A DNA stretch of 64,000 nucleotides from positions 2,369,370 to 2,433,369 of the forward strand of contig MU057744.1 in the NCBI GenBank assembly GCA_013265495.1, given 5' to 3'. This stretch comes from Vicugna vicugna (taxonomy: Eukaryota). How positions within the stretch are numbered: position 1 is the stretch's first letter; each line of letters starts with the position of its first letter. Positions 12,751 to 59,233 of the stretch are shown here, in pieces. Under the pieces are notes generated by a model, which saw nothing but the letters and a program-made list of their open reading frames with translations, was not told where the DNA came from and did no database searches. The translations under genes and the position numbers were made by a program.

Positions 12751-13154
12751 GAAGTAAGCCAGGAAGAGAAAGGAATATACCATATGATATCACTTATATG
12801 TGGAATCTTAAAAAAAAAAAGAAAGAAAAAAGGGGACACTAATGAACTCATCTACACAACAGAAACAGACTCGCAGACATAGTAAACAATGTCATGGTTA
12901 CCGGGGGAAAGAGGGTGAGAAGGGATAAACTTGGGAGTTTGAGATTTGCAAAGGTTAACCACTATATATAAAAACAGATTAAAAAAAAAGTTTCTTCTGT
13001 ACAGCACAGGAAACTACGTTCTATATCCTGTAATAACCTTTAATGAAAAAGAATATGAAAACGAATGTATGTATGTATATGCATGACTGGGACATTGTGC
13101 TGCACACCAGAAACTGACACATTGTAACTGACTGTATTTCAATTAAAAAAAAAA
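12751..13154 (+). mobile_element. 5'-truncated lineage-specific L1 (3'UTR + poly-A)
   Basis: gaagtaagccaggaagagaaag...acagcacaggaaactac...acattgtaactgactgtatttcaatt then A10. Imperfect TSD aaaaaactgactt / aaaacacctgactt. Confidence 0.9.
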
Positions 13155-25482: not shown

Positions 25483-26759
25483 CAAGTGTAAATGAGAACA
25501 AAGGACGTGAATATTCGGAGGTTACCTGCCAAAGGAGGAGTGGAAGCCACAGTTTAAACAAAGCCCGGGACACAGAAGACAGAGCCTGGTGACTAGGTTT
25601 GGGAGCTCAGATCTGACCCTTGTGCAGCAGCAGCCACCTCCAAGGGTGAGCCACTGCAGCAACAGGTGAACTGGGAAACACCAGAGAGCAACAGAGCGTA
25701 TTCTAGACTCTCTCCTCCGGTCACTTGTTCCTTGGCCTTTGGTACTGAGGGGTTGGCTGGCTCCTGTGCATTCTGCAGTCACCTAAGATTGTGGTGAGAT
25801 TTTTAATCTCATTTTGCTTTACCACCCATGGACTGCCTCCTTTCCAGGATTTTCCCTTCCAGTAACCAAACTCCAAGGCAGCCCCAAACTCTACCTCCTC
25901 TGGCACATAAGATGTCTGCTCTTCATGGGAGCGCTCTGGCTCTGTGGGCCCAGATTTGGGGAGTGCATTTGGTGAACCAGCCAATTAGATGTAGGTTTTA
26001 CCTACACTGATCCTCTTCTTTCAAGGATGTATTACCTGCTTAACTTCTTTTCATCACTCTTTAATGTCTTCAAAAAGTTATTTTTCATATTTCCCCCAAC
26101 TTATCATTATTTCTGAAATAAGTTACTTTGCCATCACAGAAGTAAAACACTGTCTCTTTTTTTAAAGCTACGTTGTCCCTTCTAGAATAACATAAAGATA
26201 ACGAAATTGCTCTCATTTCAAACACAGTTTAATGACTGACACAATTTCAATTATGTCAGTATATAGTAACAACAGTAAACACTATTTTCAATTACTATTC
26301 TTTTCTTAAAATAGTAAATACATGGTCCTAGATCTTGAGAGCATAAATATATACAAAATGCAAGACATTTATCATCTCATTAAATCTCAAACATTTGCTG
26401 TTTTCTCAATTATAAATTACTGTCCTCTTCTCAGAATTAAGTTTTGCTGAAGGATGGGTGACTTGTGGACCAAAGCAAATCTGTAAGGTCATGATAAATA
26501 GCTTCCAGAAGATGGTGAGGGTGTAATCATGAAAACTGTAACTAAAAAAAATACTGAAAGTAATCTGTATCATGCTGCTTCCAGTAAAAACACGTACTTT
26601 CCTATTCTACTGTTCAATGCAGTATGCTAGTATCACATGGTTCTACTGATGCAGAAGTAACTGGTGATGCAGAAGAATATATAATACACGTTTCTTGAGT
26701 ATCTCAATCAATCTTGGCCTCCATTTCGGTAATCACCCAGATTTTTCCTTCCTGCGTTA

Positions 26760-27600
26760 CAGGTCCTTCCTGTGGGTTGAAGAGGCGGGTCCCTGCTGTG
26801 ACGCCCCCGCCGGCTGTGCGGATACGTGCCACTGGCTCCTAACAGAATACTCGGGCAGGCCCCGAACCTCAGGGTCCAGAACGGGACTCCGAGCCAAAGC
26901 CTTTTTTCAATTTTGGGTCGAGGAGGAGTACGTGGAAAATTAACATGACGAACAGTGGTGCAACAGAAAGCCAGCACAAAATCATCGAAGTCTCGTGGGA
27001 CCGGAAAACAAGGCTTTGCTCCCGCGACGACAGGGAGGACTGCGAAGAGGAGGGGTTTGCGGTTTTCCACTCGGCGTCCGCCGCGCCGAGGTCTACAGGC
27101 AGACGCGCCTCCATCTGGCGTTCGGCCGTCCTTCTACGGCTCCGAATCGGAGGTGGGCTGCGTGAGTCTTCCGACTAGCCAGGGTTCTCGGTTCCTTGCT
27201 GGCTGCTCCCTAACATCTGGAAAAGCTGAGGACAGCAGTTCACAGACATGCATCCAAAGACAGAGGATGGATAAGCTCTGTTTCACTCTGCAGAGGCTGT
27301 CCTGTGGCAGCAGCCCTCGCGGCACCTTTGGGCGGAGGGGCCGCAGAGGGGGCCGCTCACACAACCAGCGTGGGCTGCTGCCACTTCAGCCGCAGGAACC
27401 GGAAGCGGCTGCGGACACCACGCAAGATGTGGAGCAGCAGCTGCTGCGTTGCAGAAATTAAAGCTCTGAAGTGAGAACGTGTGCTGGACAGAGCTCGTCA
27501 CGGGACGGAGACGCGCTGCGCTGCACAGCGTCAGGCTGGGAGCGTCTGGCTTCTTCAACTTTAAGGTGGAAGGCACGGTCCCCCTTTGTAAAGCGGGGGA
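26760..27600. promoter_or_regulatory. CpG island-like region (orphan)
   Basis: About 60 CpGs in ~840 bp by manual count, visibly GC-rich, inside strongly AT-rich flanks. Contains ETS-like aaccggaagc (27397-27406). Confidence 0.6.
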
Positions 27601-30600
27601 TTCTCACAGCAGAAAATGTGATTCAGAGGCTGGATGCTCAAAAAGAATGGCAGATCTCCACCACGGATGGTCTAGATTTAATTAAAGGCACCCTGGACTA
27701 ATACCAAATAATAATATCAGGAGCTTAAAGTTAATTTAAAAATTCTAATTCCCTCTAATTTTGTTTTAAAGGAAGTCCATCCAAACAATTTTCATAAAGA
27801 ATGAAGTATTGCTCAGGAACTCTCTGAAAGTAATAATGCATCTGGTTCTCAGGAAAACAAGCATTATCCTGAGGGAAGTATCTGTTGGTTCCTTGGCAAC
27901 AGTTCCCCATGCAAATAGCCTTTAAAAAAAATTCTTTCTGCACGTGCATCTGTGAATGTTTACATTCGTAGTTTGAAAGATTTTCTTTCTGTCTAGTTAT
28001 TCTTATCTGTGGGTTCCTCATCAAGAGAACCCCAAGTATATGTTGGTGGTAAGATCAGACAATGGTCTTCCTTACACTGAACTGGCTGTTGAATCATCCT
28101 GTTAAATCAGGCTACTATCTAAACTTCGCAGTTTCAACTATGCTTACGTAGAGCTCTGTTTCTATGAATTCCTACTTCATTATATGTGGTGAAAATTATC
28201 TCTGTTTTGCAGATGTCCATATCAATCTATCGTATTTCATCTAATCTGCTGGATAATGATGATTTTTCTTTGATCACCTAACAGCATCACTTAGGAAGTA
28301 AGAAATTACCAGAAGGTTATCTAGCAGGTGCATGTCAGCACCTATCATGTAAAAGTCAGCCAAGAATAAAGAAGAAGTTATTTAAAAATAAGCAGAGTCA
28401 AACTTCTGTGGGTTTGAGCACTATACCAATTTCTTTTGCAGTTCCTTGTTTTGGATGTTACGCCTATATAATGATTCTAAAGTAAGAAAGGATATATTTT
28501 CACTTAATACAAATATTAAATATTTATGCAAGGAAATGTCCAACAAGAATTTGTAAAAGGTGGTAGTATTTGCAAATAAGGACGTGGAAGACATAAATGC
28601 TAAATAAAGCATTCTCTTGTGAACTCTAGGAACGCATCCTGCTAATGTTCTCTGGTTCTCTGATGTATAATTATATTTGCTCAAACGTGCCCTAAATGTT
28701 CCTTCAATGAATCTAACTTCTGTGATGTCCATTTTCACCTTTATAGCCTCTGTCTTTTGCCTTTAAGCTCAATCAATATTTCCAGTCCCATCTTTCTCAA
28801 ATTCCTCGTGCTCACCCCATTCTGAATCATGGATCTCACTGACTTTACATTCGGGCGATGGAGCTCTCCCCTCCGGCCATGAAGAAGGTCCCTGCAGGAA
28901 GCACTACCTGATATACTGGCTGCATTTACACTGCCGATGTAGCCAGACCACAGTGCAGTCACAAGGACTGCTTCCACAATTCCCACAACTTTGTTCCAGA
29001 ATATAAGGCTGTTTGGCTTTTCTTTATGAAGATGGCTGAAAAGACTACATCAACTATGACACTTCTTTCGTGGGAAGAAAGTAATAAAACCTATGTGTTA
29101 AGTACTACGTTCAAACGGGCATGACGTCTTTACACAATATACAATATAACATGTACGAAAGAACCCTGGCATCCTGGACTAGGGGAACTTTAAGGTACAT
29201 CCTTAAACATTAAATACAGGAGGAAGAACACAAAAGTAATCAGTTTTCTACTCTTTGTCCAAATTGTCTCCAGTGTCCCTTATACATTTACTTTATTTTC
29301 CAACTAGTCCACAAATTCTTAGACTTCCGACTCTCTGAACCACCCGCCATATAACTGAGGGCATAATCAAAATGTTTGCTTGTCCACTGTCTAATTTATT
29401 GATAACTGAGGAAGCAAGACTTTTTTTTCCCTTAAATTTCATTCAAGTCCATAGCTGAGCTCATTTAGCTGGGAAGGTTTGTGCATTATATTAAAAACCT
29501 TGGAATTACACTTACATTGGCCCGATCCCAGCCTTACCATTTTTAGATAGGAAACCTTGCACAAACTAGTAAACGTTCATGAGCTCTTTTTAGAAATGGA
29601 CGATTTAATTTTCACTTATGTACCCTTTGTTATTCTTCAGCTTTATTTAGAAAATGAAGATTACAGCATATTCTTTGCAGTGTAAACATGAGGACTGAGC
29701 TGGCCTAGGGTCTGAATAGTATTACTGTTATTTATTCTGCTATTATTTATTACATCATGGTACAAAATAGCATTTTGGGGACTGAGCTAATAACACGCTT
29801 TTATTATTTATTGTTTTCTGAAAAAAGAGACATAATGTGGGTGAATGATAAATTCACTAAAGTTCATGTTTTAATTATACCATAGAGTTACTTACTTCCT
29901 GTCAGCGTGTCAGGAAATTCGTCTTATATAACCCAAGTACAATTACTGACATTAGGAAGCTATATACTGAATAATACTATTATCTAACATAAAGGCTATA
30001 TTCAAATTTTGTCAACTGCTTCAGTAACATCATTTATAGTGATTCTTTTTTTTTTAAATTAAATATCCATTTACCCCATCTCCCTACCTCTGTTCGTTGT
30101 GAACTGTTCTCCACCATTTTTGTCTCTATCATTGCTGTTACTTAAAAGAATAGTTAGTATTTTTGAAGCATGTTCCTCAACTTAGGTTTGCATCTTTGTT
30201 TCCTTATGATTAGACCTGGGTTATGCACTTTTACCAAGATCATTGTGTGAATACACTTGTGTTTGTTTCACTGCATCTCATCAGGGCCTGGTGTCAGCTT
30301 GGTTCTGCGTCAGTGGTATTAACTGATCTCTTAGCTAAGGGAGGTGTTGACTGTTCAATTTCCCCACTGTTAAAGCAGTTTTATTCCTTTTATGATAAAT
30401 GCGTGTTCTGAGGGCAGATGCTATAAGCAATTGCCTTTAATTTCAGCAGCCATTCATGATTCTTGCTTGAGTTCATTATTATGAGGATAATTGCAAAATG
30501 GGGGATTTTTACTGTATAATTCCATTTGCATGTATTTATAACATTCTCTTCTTCATTTTTACCTTCTGTAATATGTATACATGCATGTATGTGTATATTA

Positions 30601-41926: not shown

Positions 41927-42114
41927 AAAAAGACTCTATAATCTCTAATCAAAAGATTGTTACACAGGTTACAATGATATAATAAATATAAAATATTCAG
42001 AAACGTCCCTGTCACAGAGTAAACTATATAAACATATTTGATTTTTTATCAAAGTCTGGTTTGATCTATCTCTCCAAATATTTCAATTAAAATAGAAAGA
42101 CTACAAGTAAATAG

Positions 42115-42656
42115 CACTGGGGAGAAAATCTGCTACCCCAAAATATGCCTCTTTGTCATGGGGGTTAATTTAGGATGATTACTTTTAAGTCCCAAAGGCT
42201 TAGGCGGAAACTTTGACCTCCTCCCTAACGTCCTAAAGAGTGTAGGTGGAGGACCTTTTCCAGGAGGGAGCATCACCACAGATAATTATTATAATATGAA
42301 GAGGTGCACAGAGTGGAACCTAGCAAAGTGTCTGTTAAAATTTCTCTCTGTGTCGCACTGTCTTTGCTGACCCTGCAAACATTTGTTTACCAAACGTTTG
42401 CTTTTCTATCTCCATGTGAATTGCCTCCCTCCCCTTTGAGGTCCCAAACTACTACCCACAACATCCTCTTTTGTCGTTAGCCAAAGATGGTATTTAAGGT
42501 GAGGGTTTTGGCCATTTTGGTGAGTCAATCTGTTTTCCATGTATACCTCTTATTAAAGTTTGATTTTTCTCCTGTTAACCTGTCTCATGTCAATTTAATT
42601 CTTAGACCAGGCAGAAGAACCTAGAAGGCTGGAGGAAAATATCTTCTTTCCCAGCA
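42115..42656 (+). mobile_element. MER34-like ERV1 solo LTR
   Basis: ctaccccaaaatatgcctctttg at the 5' end. TATA-like gtatttaag, ATTAAA and ttttctcctgttaacctgtctcatgtcaattt...agaacctagaagg...cccagca at the 3' end. Possible TSD atag/atgg. Confidence 0.8.
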
Positions 42657-42728
42657 ATGGAAATTTCCAGAAGTTATTATTTAAACTGTTAACATTGAAT
42701 TGCATCTTCTTTTTGATTCAGATATTAC

Positions 42729-43964
42729 TGTTACTGAACAAAAGCTTATGTGCCTGATGCACAATGAGACCAAACAAACTGAAACTTCAGAGCTCAGAGC
42801 AGAGGAAGGTTTATTGCAGGACCACGCAAGGAGAAGGGGTGGCTCATGCTCGAAAAACCCCAACTCCTTGACAGTTTTTGGGGAAGAGTTTCTTTCTTTC
42901 TTTCTTTTTTTTTTAATATTTTGAAACAAAATTACAATGTTTAATATGATATACTACTGAGAATTCAAATTTACATAAGTAGTATTAAATTCATACTTTA
43001 GATATTCATTGCCACAATATTTTAAGTATGAAATACATTTCAAAAAGCCTTTTTAAAAGATGTTTGCTGTCCAATGCTGTGACTCCCAAGATCTTTACAA
43101 TCCTTAGTTTTCAGTAGATTTTGTTTATTTATTTATTTATTTATTTTGCAAAGCTAACCATTTATTCAACAGCTACTTCTTGGGCACCTAATACATGTCA
43201 GTCACCTGTATCCACACAGATGCTAGAAAAGTAGTGAAAATTTGTAAAGGAATTATCAAGAATTCTTAGATATTTCTACATTTAAATAGTGTCGTATGCA
43301 AGTATGGCTTTTTTTTTACTGAGTTATAGTCAGTTTACAATGTTGTGTCAATTTCTGCTGAACAGCACAGTTTTCCAGTCATACATGAACATATATTCGC
43401 CCTCACACTCTTCTTCACAGGGGAAGAGTGTTTATAGGCAAACCTGGGGTAGGGACTGCAGCGTGAGTGACCTCCCTCTGGCTGGCTGGAGGGGCGGTAC
43501 CAGGGCACTGCTCCAGAAGTCTGTGCTCAGCTGGACATTACCGTCCTCCACCTGGGCGAGGTTCTCCATTCCTGCAGAGGAAGATACTGTTCTGCTTATC
43601 CCTCGAGGAGGAATCAGGACCCTGCCCCCAGGCTGTGTCCCTGTTTCTTAACTCTTCCTCCCTTGCCTCTGCCTCCTCTCCCTTCTCTGATAAGCAACTG
43701 TTTGAATCTGCCCTTTGGAACTCAGGGAAGGTCGAGGAGGCTGAAGGAAGCCTGTTTCCTACAAGCAAGAGATGGAGGACTCAGAAAGCATTTGTACCAG
43801 GGAGGACCCCACAGGGTCCTGCTCCGTTTTAATCCCCCCTTTTCTTTGATGTGCTTCAATTTTGAGGAGAGCAGGTGTCAGACAAGAAAGGGAATAATGC
43901 TTTGAATAGAGAGGTTAATCATAAACTCGGCAGAGGAACTCAGTGTTAGGCGGACTTCGTTTCA
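42729..43964 (-). mobile_element. MER41-like cetartiodactyl ERV1 LTR, split by an L1 insertion
   Basis: tgttactgaacaaaagc...aaggtttattgcagg (minus-strand AATAAA), then after the insert tttataggcaaa...aactgtttgaatctgccctttggaactcagggaagg...tttca. The halves join across the TSD ggggaagagt. Confidence 0.8.
42880..43429 (-). mobile_element. 5'-truncated L1 with 3'-transduced genomic DNA
   Basis: TSD ggggaagagt at 42880-42889 and 43420-43429. L1 3' end 43318-43419, L1 poly(A) 43309-43317, ~390 bp non-L1 DNA, ATTAAA at 42940-42945 and terminal A-rich tail 42890-42914. Confidence 0.85.
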
Positions 43965-45299
43965 GTTCCTATTGTTCACACTAAATATTATGTGGAATTC
44001 TAGTATGTAAAGCAATTATAATGGAGCTGATCTGAATTTAATCAGCATGTAAGCCGAAAGCCTCAACAACCTCTTCCTTTTAGTTCCCCCATGGTCTTGG
44101 GCTACCTTCCTAGCAACCGGAAGGATGCAGTCTGAACGCCGTGCTGTTTGGGTTCATGATTCTACTTAGTAAGCAACATTCTGGCACAGAGCTGTCAAGC
44201 ACATCATTAATTAAACACACATATAGATTGAATATAATATCCAAGAAGGTCTACATCCCTGTTGGAAAGCACTATGAGGAAATTCTGTTGAAGATGATCT
44301 GTAACTATAGTAAGATTGGTTCTATATTGGCTTTCAAAAACAGTGGAAAGAATAATAATAATAAAAACAAGCTCTTGTCTATTACACTCACTCATTAACC
44401 CTCCAGACACATAAAGAGACAGTTCCTCTCCTGTCCTCAGACTGAACACACACAGTCTGTCAAGTATTTATTTGTTACGGTAGAACTTAAACTGAACACA
44501 TGTATCTTTAAAAAATGGAATTAGATATATTAATGACATATTATAATCTGTTCAGAGTAGAGTAACACTTAATTTCCAGAAATTATCATGATACTAGAAT
44601 TCTAGAACTTTCTAAATAAACTCCAAGACATCAAAGGTTTTAGGAAGGTTAAGAATAAATCACTGTGATCAGTGATTAAAAAAAAAAACTGTAATCAATA
44701 TTGTATTTGATTTCTTATGTCTAATTAATATTTCTGAAAATGCTGAACTACTCAAAAATAATAACATTAAAAATGATGTTTTGTGAATAATTTGACTATA
44801 GCAATCAAATATCTCAAAGGGCTTTGTAAATTCACCTCTGACTCGATGATCAATATTTCTGAAATTGTGCTGACAGGACAAAGAAATTTATATTCAAAAG
44901 TACACACTCAATCAATAGCCTAAGTCACATAAAGCAGGGAAAGCTATTCTCCTTAGTGACATAATCATCAAACATAATTTATTGAAGGCTCGTCTATGTT
45001 TGATGCTGATGAAGTAGAAAGACAGGTGTGCTATTTCAAATGCATGAGACCACAAATTGAGGTTCAAAGCATTGATTCCAAAATAAAAACACAATGCAGT
45101 GCATATGGGACAAGAACTAATAAACACGTTTGGGAATAAAATGTTGCCACAAAATTATAGACACAGTTGAATTAAAATAATGAAAAATAGGAAATCAGTT
45201 TTGCCAAGTAAATCTCAAAAATTAGGTGAAACCAACCAATTTCTAAGGGAAAAAAAAACCTAACAGACTTAATATGGAGTGCACTTAAAAATTAGGTGA

Positions 45300-45915
45300 G
45301 CCATCCTGGGCATATATCCAGAAGAGACGAAAACTCTAATTTGAAAAGATACATGCACCTCAATATTCATAGCAGCACTATTTACAATAGCCAAGATATG
45401 GAAGCAACCTAAATGTCTATCAATAGGTGAACTGGTAAAGAAGTTGTGGTGCATTATACAATGGAACACACTCAGCCACATATAAGAATGAAGTATTGCC
45501 ATTTGCAGCAATATGGATGGAATTTTGGAGATCATCATTCTAGGTCAAGTAACTCAGACAGAGAAAGACAAATACCATATGATATCACTTATATGTGGAA
45601 TCTAAAAAAGTAATACAAATGAATCTATATGCAAAACAGAAACATACTCACAGACAGAGAAAACCAACTTACGTTTACCAGATGGGAAAGGGAGGTGGGG
45701 AGGGGTAGATTAGGAGTACGGGATCAACAGATACAAACTACTCTACACAAAATAGATCAGCAACAAGGATTTACTGTACAGCACAGGGAGCTATATTCAT
45801 TATCTTGTAATAATCTATAACGGGAAATAATCTGAAAAACAAGTTTTGCTGTACACCTGAAGCTTACACAGTATTTTAACTCAACTATACTTCAGTTAAA
45901 AAAAAAAAGAAAAAT
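45300..45915 (+). mobile_element. 5'-truncated L1 (ORF2 C-terminus + 3'UTR + poly-A)
   Basis: cctgggcatatatccagaagagacgaaaactctaatttgaaaagatacatgcacc...caactatacttcagtt plus A-tail. Confidence 0.9.
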
Positions 45916-56005: not shown

Positions 56006-56502
56006 AGTTGTGGTATATTCATACAATGGAATACTACTCAGGCATAAAAAAGAATAAAATAATGCCATTTGCAGCAACATGGATGGACCTAGAGAATGTC
56101 ATTCGAAGTGAAGTAAGCCAGAATGAGAAAGAAAAATACCACATGCTATCTCTTGTATGTGGAATCTAAAAAACAAAAAGACAAGTTTATGTGCAAAACA
56201 GAAACAGACTCACAGACATAGAAAACAAACATGGTTACTGGTGGGAAGGGGATGGGAAGGGATAAATTAGGAGTCTGAGATCTGCAGATGCTGACTAATA
56301 TATACAAAATAGATAAACAACAAGTTCATACTGTATAGCACAGGGAACTATGTTCAATATCTTGTAGTAACTTATGGTGAAAAATACGAAAATGAATATA
56401 TGTACATTCATGTATGACCGAAGCATTATAATGTACAGCAGAAATGGATACAACATTGCAAACTGACTATACTTCAATAAAAAAAATATATATATATATA
56501 TA
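56006..56502 (+). mobile_element. 5'-truncated lineage-specific L1 (ORF2 end + 3'UTR)
   Basis: gttgtggtatattcatacaatggaatactactcag...gtatagcacagggaactat...actgactatacttcaataaaaaaaa plus (AT)n. Confidence 0.9.
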
Positions 56503-59233
56503 AAGAAGTGGCTTGTACTTCCATATTAGACACAAAAAGAGGAAAGTAGTCATTTTTCCTGTTCTTTAAGTTATTGTTTGCACATCTTTTAAAATAAGAG
56601 CTTTCAAAAGCCTTAAATTATCAAAAGATTTGTTTACTTAATTTTTCGAAGCATGAGAGATGTAGGCAAGAAAATGTTTTGAACAAGGCAATGGAAATAA
56701 AGGGCTTCAAAGAGTAGCCCAGGTGGCAAAGGCATGGCCACCATTAATCTGTCGGAAACTGTAACCGCAACCCTGAGAACAGGGTGAGTCATCGGGGGAT
56801 TGCCTGGAAGAGCAAATTACAGGACACTTAATTTAGCTACTCTGATTCACTACATCACCACATAGCAGCGCCCACACCATCTACAGGTGGCAGTTAATGT
56901 GTCTGTTTGCTGTACCTCCTTAAAAGTCCCCCTGTCATTCCAATGCCCCAGAAAAAAAAAAAAAAGACAAAAAAAGAAAAAGAAAATCTGTGAATGGTAG
57001 AAAAAATAATTTTTTCCAAGGACTTCTCGTATACCTCGCCATAGAAAAACATAGTGCCTCCAAGTAGAAAAATGAGGAGGCAGTTAAGATAAAACGAGGG
57101 ACACTGAGAAAGAAAAACACTGTGCCAATAACTGGAAAAAATGAAAATAGCAGGTAACACTGTGTTAATTATACTTGTGACCTGGAATATCAACTATATA
57201 TGTATATATAGATATAGATCTTCAGGAGATACAGATGATGAGCTAATAAAAAGTTTCCAACCAATTAAATTAGGTGCTGCACAGGTTGCCATAGCAACCC
57301 ACTTTGATGAGGACCACAGCAGAAATGAACTTGGAAAAACTGGTCTCCAGCTTGGAGTGAAGACTAGGTTTTAAGAAGAAAAGTACCACACTATTTTGGT
57401 AAAAAAAAAAAGTTGAATAACATAATATATACTTAACTTTCTTTGTATGCTTCCTTGAAAATCAGAGTAGTCAGGGGGCTTTGACAGCGGCACCATTGTG
57501 GAAACTCTCCTAGAGGGAATGTAAAGACTGCAATCTGGACAGTGTGTGGAGGTGGGCATATCTGGAGTCTAGAACCTTCCTACGTCTTCATTTACCCTGG
57601 TCTTCCCTCTGTTTAATGTACCAGCTTAGGTTGTGTATATTCCAAATGCCATTCCAACTCACTGACAAATTCTTTTCATTTTTTTACCACTGCTATGGCT
57701 TATCTTAAAATATATTACATTTATATGTATATACAATTTATACATAATAAATAATACTACAAACACTTTATACATAATTTTATTTTAAAATTACTACCAA
57801 AATTGCATACTGTCTGGTATGGTTAACATACACCGTAAGTGTGTAATTATATTCATGCACTTGCCACATACATATTCCCTTCATACTTGGCATCAGGCAT
57901 ATTATTACTGATGACACTATGGGTGTGAACATGCGTGTATACAGTGTTCCGTGTATTCACATGTAAAATCTTTAGTGAAAGAGACAACTGCTTAGAAATT
58001 TTGTGAATATTTCACCGTTCACTGTGCTGCTCTAAGGCTCACTGTAAGTTGAGGCACTGTCTGTACTTCCTAGTGATTATGGTTTAAACAGGAACAAACC
58101 TGTAGCCTTTCCTTCCTGCTTCAGAAGTGACAGTGAAGGAGTCTCTCCCCTCAGAAGAGAAATCAGTAACAACATGTGTGTCGCACCGTGCGGCCTGATG
58201 CCCCTTTTTTAAATGCACTGAAGAAAAATCTCCTGGCCTCCTATCTAAGTCCCCATCAGATTTCTCCTATCTCCATTTCCTGCCAAGTCTCAGCCCAGTA
58301 GCCCCCAGGGAGTCTGGTGGAGCAGGTGCAGGAAGCAGAGGAAATTCAAGAAAGGGAGGGAAAACAGCTGCAAGGCAAAGCAGGTAGAGAAGCCCTGGGA
58401 CACGCGCATTAATCAGTGCTTGCCTTATCACAGGAACAGCAAACTTCGCAAGCCTTGGACTACGATACTGTGCAAGGGCATTACATCATATTTACAACGA
58501 ATTCTTGCTCCATTTCACACTCAAAGAAAACTCTGAAATATTATAGGTTTCGATATGTCTTTCTCCACAGTAATTCTCAATTTGGGGGCAGCATGAAGAC
58601 CTGTATTATGTAACAAAAACTATTAAACATCTTCCAGAAAAATATGAAATTATATATATATTCACAGAATATTTTTCAGAAGATTAGTGAGTCATTGAAG
58701 CCTGTGGATGAAGTACAGACTAAAAACCTACAACCTTCTGAAAGAAAATCTGATTTTCTTATATTTAAGACACTGTAGTTACTAATTTTCATTTTAAATT
58801 AACACATTTTTATTATCATTTTGATTTAAGTCCCATGTAGATTTTTCTGCAAAGAGTAAACTAATGGCTGTTGCATATTATGCATTCTGTGGCTGTTACA
58901 TTAATAATTTACAGTATATCAACTCCTCTGATCTTTGTTTCACATTCAATATATTTTTACTCGCATTCCACTTGGAACTGGAGTTTGAGTTGAAGTGGAA
59001 ATATAAAGATGAAAAAACCAGTGTCCCTGCCCTAAAGAAGTGTTACCGAGGCTGTCACTCCAGAAGCCTGCCCCTCTCTCTGGGTAAGCTTGCAGAAAAC
59101 AGAAACTAACCATATCCTCTAGCTGTGTGTACATCACAGGAACAAAAGAGAGAGTCTAACCACGAGGAAACTGGTGCAAGCTGGTTCAGCTCCAAAAGTG
59201 GGATGATGGTTGGCTTACAGCTCATTATCATCT

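Follow-up and report, generated by a model that had tools for sequence, protein, structure and literature searches.

A dead, non-coding scar of L1 retrotransposition interrupts an LTR-like element on the 64-kb window's minus strand, the window being the whole stretch of DNA analyzed here. That this insert is a product of the L1 machinery, made by target-primed reverse transcription (TPRT), is well supported by its target-site duplication (TSD), its polyadenylation signal, its poly(A) tail, and its 5′ truncation. From its sequence arrangement, the insert probably arose by L1 3′ transduction in cis, most likely concatenated over two rounds.

Anatomy of the insert and its host element

Read along the minus strand, the parts of the locus follow one another in the order TSD (43429-43420), L1 3′ end (102 bp), A9, cargo (394 bp), ATTAAA, 25-nt tail, and second TSD (42889-42880). 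The original prediction had named the same components (ggggaagagt twice, an L1 end, A9, cargo, ATTAAA, and a tail), and each was found in the place proposed for it. The features are as follows.

42729..42879, minus strand: 3′ part of the host LTR-like element, with AATAAA at 42815-42810 and a CA end
42880..42889, unstranded: TSD copy at the 3′ end of the insert (to 42893 if 14 bp)
42890..42914, minus strand: final poly(A) tail, 25 nt, A10 plus (GAAA)n decay
42915..43118, minus strand: cargo segment 2, 204 bp, putative flank of an intermediate locus, with no similar copy in the window
42940..42945, minus strand: ATTAAA signal, 25 nt ahead of the final tail
43119..43147, minus strand: internal A-rich tract (TAAA)n, 29 nt with 23 A, putatively a decayed earlier poly(A) tail
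43148..43308, minus strand: cargo segment 1, 161 bp, putative flank of the first source locus
43159..43201, minus strand: L2-like 3′ end in sense orientation, with TGTA (43195-43192) and AATAAA (43166) arranged as in L2a
43161..43166, minus strand: AATAAA that terminates the L2-like piece, 13 nt ahead of the internal tract
43309..43317, minus strand: A9, remnant of the L1 tail
43318..43419, minus strand: 5′-truncated L1 3′ end, 102 bp, recognized by similarity to L1 ends in the window
43400..43413, minus strand: six A-to-G differences (43413, 43408, 43406, 43402, 43401, 43400) from the L1 copy at 13 kb
43405..43431, unstranded: perfect 9-bp inverted repeat over the 5′ junction, arms 43405-43413 and 43423-43431
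43420..43429, unstranded: TSD copy at the 5′ end of the insert (to 43433 if 14 bp)
43430..43832, minus strand: 5′ part of the host LTR-like element, with TATAAA (43436-43431) holding the putative cut site
43833..43847, minus strand: polypurine-tract-like run directly upstream of the LTR-like element

The 10-mer of the TSD is exact and occurs just twice in the window when both strands are searched, and its length lies within the 4-25 bp characteristic of TPRT insertions by the L1 machinery. Extension to 14 bp retains identity at 12 of 14 positions, and judging from these letters the true duplication is probably 14 bp long. The longer form would place the cut at GTTT/AT, which is near the L1 endonuclease consensus site TTTT/AA, whereas the 10-bp reading would give GAGT/GT. 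When 20,000 random window positions were sampled, a 10-mer recurring 300-800 bp upstream was encountered at 0.8% of them, and such a recurrence together with an adjoining T-rich tail at none. A chance origin of the TSD and tail arrangement is thus excluded. The 3′ poly(A) tail directly adjoins the TSD, as TPRT by the L1 machinery requires. The GC content is 0.14-0.38 through most of the insert, compared with about 0.40-0.66 in 50-bp bins of the host (42750 to 42899 and 43450 to 43849).

The L1 piece had been likened to two L1 ends in the window, at about 13060-13145 and about 56400-56480, and the alignments bear this out (77.0% over 87 bp for the end at about 13.1 kb and 79.6% over 93 bp for that at about 56.4 kb). 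Four weaker L1 ends are also matched, making six in the window altogether. The piece is in sense orientation, reaches the L1 3′ end, and retains A9; its own poly(A) signal is AGTAAA (43320-43315). Between the TSDs, then, non-L1 sequence follows an L1 3′ end in sense orientation, which is what L1 3′ transduction calls for. About 460 bp past the L1 end at 56 kb lies a 35-nt A-rich tract (56952-56986, 31 A) that has no upstream hexamer signal and is possibly the tail of another insertion. Elsewhere in the window, a tRNA-derived SINE (933-1035, with its tRNA-like part at 933-1005) is called as tRNA-Ala by ARAGORN and ends in an (AAAC)n tail. Together with the character of the L1 3′ ends, its tRNA-like part suggests a camelid genome. 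A GC- and CpG-rich, island-like stretch (26700-27620) contains several overlapping long frames, three of which lack a Pfam match.

The host element is presumably an ERV1-type LTR, and the window contains no second copy. The putative cut falls within its TATAAA, about 82 nt upstream of its AATAAA when the insert is discounted. The insertion parts this TATA-like box from the AATAAA of the LTR, and the box now faces the L1 piece and the cargo, both of which have signals of their own. Ahead of the polypurine tract there is just about 140 bp of internal-like sequence (43833-43970), a layout that makes the host look less like a solo LTR than like a provirus cut down to its 3′ end. A search for the TSD of the host element itself yielded only 5-6-bp repeats in its flanks, which is the chance level. 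A second element that we take to be LTR-like (42110-42660) sits just left of the host and runs along the plus strand. Two weak matches to one miRNA model in Rfam, at 27 and 24.5 bits, fall far below its gathering score of 74 and were rejected; the 27-bit match is a weak hairpin in the host LTR (43661-43751) and is probably due to chance.

Composition of the cargo and its route into the locus

The cargo (42915-43308) has a GC content of 0.28 and contains six AATAAA hexamers. A new poly(A) signal, ATTAAA, lies near its end, as L1 3′ transduction requires. One piece of the cargo (43159-43201) we take to be derived from L2. Similarity within the window did not add to this identification, because the best score (35) was not above those of 30 shuffled queries (31-43). 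In the accessible text of PMC2553571, the last 50 nt of L2a are described as carrying TGTA and AATAAA and as tending to sit upstream of poly(A) sites, and the piece has both motifs in that same arrangement. The original prediction had reasoned that L2, extinct long before cetartiodactyl-specific LTRs arose, could not have jumped into this LTR by itself, and that 3′ flanks are mobilized by L1 read-through. This argument does identify the cargo as older genomic DNA, but it cannot separate transduction in cis from mobilization of a host transcript in trans.

The L2-like piece ends in an AATAAA that is followed by the internal (TAAA)n tract. Among 21 A-rich tracts in the window, only three have A[AT]TAAA located 8-30 nt upstream, namely both tracts of the insert and one of the 19 others; the background rate of such an upstream signal is 4.8%. 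Apart from the internal tract, the window has just one (TAAA)n array of at least four units, which forms the tail of the L1 at 36 kb. The internal tract was spotted post hoc and falls below a stricter threshold (20 A of 25). Coming after AATAAA, the tract resembles an older poly(A) tail, which suggests two successive 3′ transductions. An internal signal and tail between cargo segments is what a concatenated transduction would show, and two rounds of read-through are the simplest reading. The cargo had initially been regarded as a single tag from a single source locus, and this view now seems less apt than one of two tags from two loci. On the other hand, (TAAA)n arrays also form without retroposition, and the tract could be an unrelated microsatellite that was present at a single donor.

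In the two-round reading, a source L1 with a weak AGTAAA signal would have read through 161 bp of its flank. The resulting RNA would have been polyadenylated at the AATAAA of the sense L2 end and inserted at an intermediate locus, and transcription of the intermediate copy would in turn have run past its new tail and across another 204 bp as far as ATTAAA. At the present locus, the anatomy suggests that L1 endonuclease cut the A-run of the TATA-like box in the host LTR. Tail-primed reverse transcription then ended some 530 nt on, when 102 bp of the L1 had been copied, and repair left the duplication. Both tails might later have decayed to microsatellites. We consider read-through from L1 in cis, by any number of rounds, to be the probable route. 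Taken separately, the two-round version has somewhat less than an even chance of being correct, and the one-round version is unlikely.

None of the six L1 ends in the window is followed by the cargo, and no donor copy of the cargo is present in the 64-kb window, which indicates that the insert is not a local duplication. A comparison of the cargo with plasmids produced a single 36-bp match that is attributable to chance.

Rather than L1 RNA, the template could have been a host transcript, such as an mRNA or lncRNA that bore a truncated L1, perhaps along with an older transduction, and whose 3′ end was reverse-transcribed by L1 proteins in trans, with truncation inside the L1. The cargo is AT-rich and ends in the manner of a 3′ UTR, which would fit such a template. 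However, the truncation must then have fallen by coincidence inside a sense L1 3′ end. L1 also prefers its own RNA, which counts further against a trans-mobilized transcript. Open frames over the insert are short, and neither an exon junction nor coding sequence was seen. The one long frame, of 121 amino acids across the 5′ junction, drew four candidates in a protein search, none with E<=10, and Pfam matched none of 11 open frames, those of the locus included. A copy made from a UTR alone would lack such matches in any case. A host transcript is still a credible alternative source, though a rather unlikely one.

The original prediction of L1-mediated 3′ transduction is thus supported in part: the evidence for insertion by the L1 machinery is good, and the cargo most likely derives from L1 read-through, but the hallmarks on which the prediction was founded are common to gene retrocopies. 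Retrocopies have a TSD, unique DNA, and a tail just as transductions do (PMC4862182, accessible text), and the nature of the template is something that we infer.

It is very improbable that the arrangement reflects DNA-level capture or an assembly artefact instead of retrotransposition, since the TSD, endonuclease-like site, signal, and tail stand in the correct order and on the correct strand, and public sequencing runs hold much of the locus. Specifically, 14 public runs from 7 studies under three organism labels contain 0.78-0.89 of the sampled words of 42400-43900. Because 38% of the 31-mers in this interval overlap the insert, even sampling would mean that each run contains no less than about 42-71% of the words in the insert. 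The insert's sequence is thus common to those labels, whether at this locus or at a donor nearly identical to it. In six RNA-type runs the share of the words is 0.06-0.09, which carries no evidential weight. Exact motifs from the L1 end and the host LTR were found at no locus in viral and metagenome contigs, collections that are not expected to hold camelid DNA.

A run of A-to-G differences near the 5′ junction

When the L1 piece is aligned with the L1 copy at 13 kb, which serves as a stand-in rather than as the parent, all six differences in the first 22 columns are A-to-G. Among the 16 differences in the remaining 83 columns, only one is of this type. A run of six of any one type has a simulated chance of 0.00032 given the window's own mismatch spectrum, and in 21 other repeat alignments from the window, with 1005 mismatches in all, no same-type run is longer than five. 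That longest control run consists of five consecutive A/G mismatches between the L1 copies at 12752-13061 and 45547-45838. Measured against the majority letter of the six copies in the window, the insert shows 23 differences, of which 11 are A-to-G, one is G-to-A, and none is C-to-T; the A-to-G set includes the poly(A) signal of the L1 itself. These six references are mostly distant, such that one of the six sites in the run rests on one copy and three rest on two. The run spans 14 nt and was found post hoc.

The reading to which we give the most weight, although it has slightly less than an even chance, is that these letters mark out either an unsampled L1 subfamily of camelids or the source copy, or that they reflect ordinary clustered mutation. 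The insert has letters found in none of the six copies at 43361, 43324, and 43323, and its departures from all six include sites that are not A-to-G, which indicates that its L1 subfamily is unsampled in the window. The in-window copies themselves are of differing length and sequence over the corresponding UTR segment, and a five-long A/G run separates two of the other copies. Nevertheless, six changes of one type that avoid a 5′ G still need a cause, as independent mutation would produce such a run with a chance of 0.0003.

ADAR might have edited the template RNA before reverse transcription, with the inosines then fixed as G. The consistency of the run and its small simulated chance speak for this possibility, as does the sequence context: none of four A residues preceded by G was changed, compared with six of nine preceded by A or T (p=0.049, on small numbers). 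Depletion of 5′ G next to edited sites is a known attribute of ADAR (PMC4365171, accessible text), and the neighbors of the changed sites conform to it. The effects of ADAR possibly extend to the L1's own poly(A) signal as well. However, the few distant references, the unsampled subfamily, the short span, and the post hoc discovery all weaken this case, and no duplex partner within the insert ever outperformed shuffled sequence. The best duplex with the cargo (-16.3 kcal/mol) was equaled in 28-31% of the shuffled sequences and in 69-82% of segments drawn at random, and the fold of the whole insert gave z=+1.02. A candidate stem between the A-to-G block and cargo 43241-43220, in which three of the sites lie opposite C, was rejected because it was no better than shuffles. 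We therefore regard ADAR editing as a tentative explanation that is somewhat unlikely to be correct.

Such editing would also bear on the template. In the accessible text of PMC5224506, expressed full-length L1 RNA is reported to be unedited in cells, and edited LINEs are reported to be mostly truncated copies in 3′ UTRs. Accordingly, if ADAR caused the A-to-G run, then the run points to a host transcript, and an ADAR origin would fit a UTR that held an L1 fragment together with an inverted partner.

Fold-back template switching at the 5′ junction could instead have copied target sequence, inverted, into the L1 end, or a quasi-palindrome could have been perfected there later. Three of the six G letters fall within the perfect 9-bp inverted repeat that bridges the junction, and an inverted repeat of this length turns up at just 4 of 2766 positions sampled in the window. 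One base of the flank arm, 43430, is not the same in both copies of the TSD, so this arm may have been converted from the insert. Fold-back leaves 43402-43400 unexplained, and we consider it quite unlikely.

Significance and relation to known systems

A lone old transduction in non-coding DNA is of little importance. However, its two cargo tags could be used to trace a camelid L1 lineage, and the insert provides a presence/absence marker that is younger than the host LTR. One paper has reportedly traced L1 families by transduced sequence. The importance of the locus would rise if the A-to-G run were an ADAR scar. According to the accessible text of a 2016 review (PMC4982230), ADAR editing had been assumed to play a part in the evolution of retroelements, but this part had yet to be determined. 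It is conceivable, although we doubt it, that an ADAR-edited RNA is preserved in the insert as a germline fossil and that an edited signal (AATAAA to AGTAAA) drove serial 3′ transduction. If true, the locus would directly document the reshaping, by RNA editing, of both a retrotransposon lineage and the host DNA that it moved. The edited lineage could then be followed by means of the two cargo tags, and for transduction-tagged L1 copies the tag would lead to the unedited parent. Published ADAR-edited copies of L1 or other retroelements fixed in genomes were not encountered in a search that fell short of most subscription papers.

As a probable L1 transduction, the insert is a new example of a known process, and its sole unusual feature is the A-to-G burst. 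Transductions accompany 10-23% of L1 insertions (PMC12593883, accessible text), and the accessible text of a camelid transposable element survey (PMC8605555) has one mention of 3′ transduction, which treats it as a property of L1 in general. Germline L1 3′ transductions as portrayed in the accessible part of PMC4862182 share with the insert a TSD, a truncated L1, unique sequence, a new signal and tail, and the skipping of a weak L1 signal. The insert differs from them in having two apparent cargo segments, an internal tail, and a 5′ A-to-G run, in residing in a camelid-like genome, and in that its source locus is putative.

Concatenated transductions are likewise established, with 27 cases among 217 transduction-bearing SVAs (PMC12593883), and internal A-tracts ahead of transduced sequence have been described for L1 (PMC6425141), in the accessible texts of both. 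The insert resembles these SVA and L1 cases in its internal A-tract before further transduced sequence. In the same sources, offspring of transduction families act as sources themselves, as the intermediate copy proposed here would have done. The L2-like piece also has its counterpart, as fragments of transposable elements are found within the cargo of 68% of SVA transductions (PMC12593883, accessible text). In contrast with these systems, the two-source reading made here is based on one internal signal-plus-tract, and the element is old and decayed.

The 3′ fragments of gene retrocopies, or processed pseudogenes, are similar to the insert in their TSD, unique sequence, signal, tail, and use of L1 proteins in trans. 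In the insert, by contrast, no exon junction or coding sequence was seen, and the 5′ end falls within a sense L1 3′ end that retains an A9 of its own.

Clusters of ADAR hyper-edited RNA, as characterized in the accessible text of PMC4365171, show the same kind of one-type mismatch run and the same avoidance of a 5′ G. The A-to-G changes of the insert are instead in genomic DNA, number six sites in 14 nt, and have no double-stranded RNA partner found in the insert. Finally, retroelements edited by APOBEC also carry same-type runs, but these DNA-level scars are G-to-A (PMC2873906, accessible text), whereas those of the insert are A-to-G.
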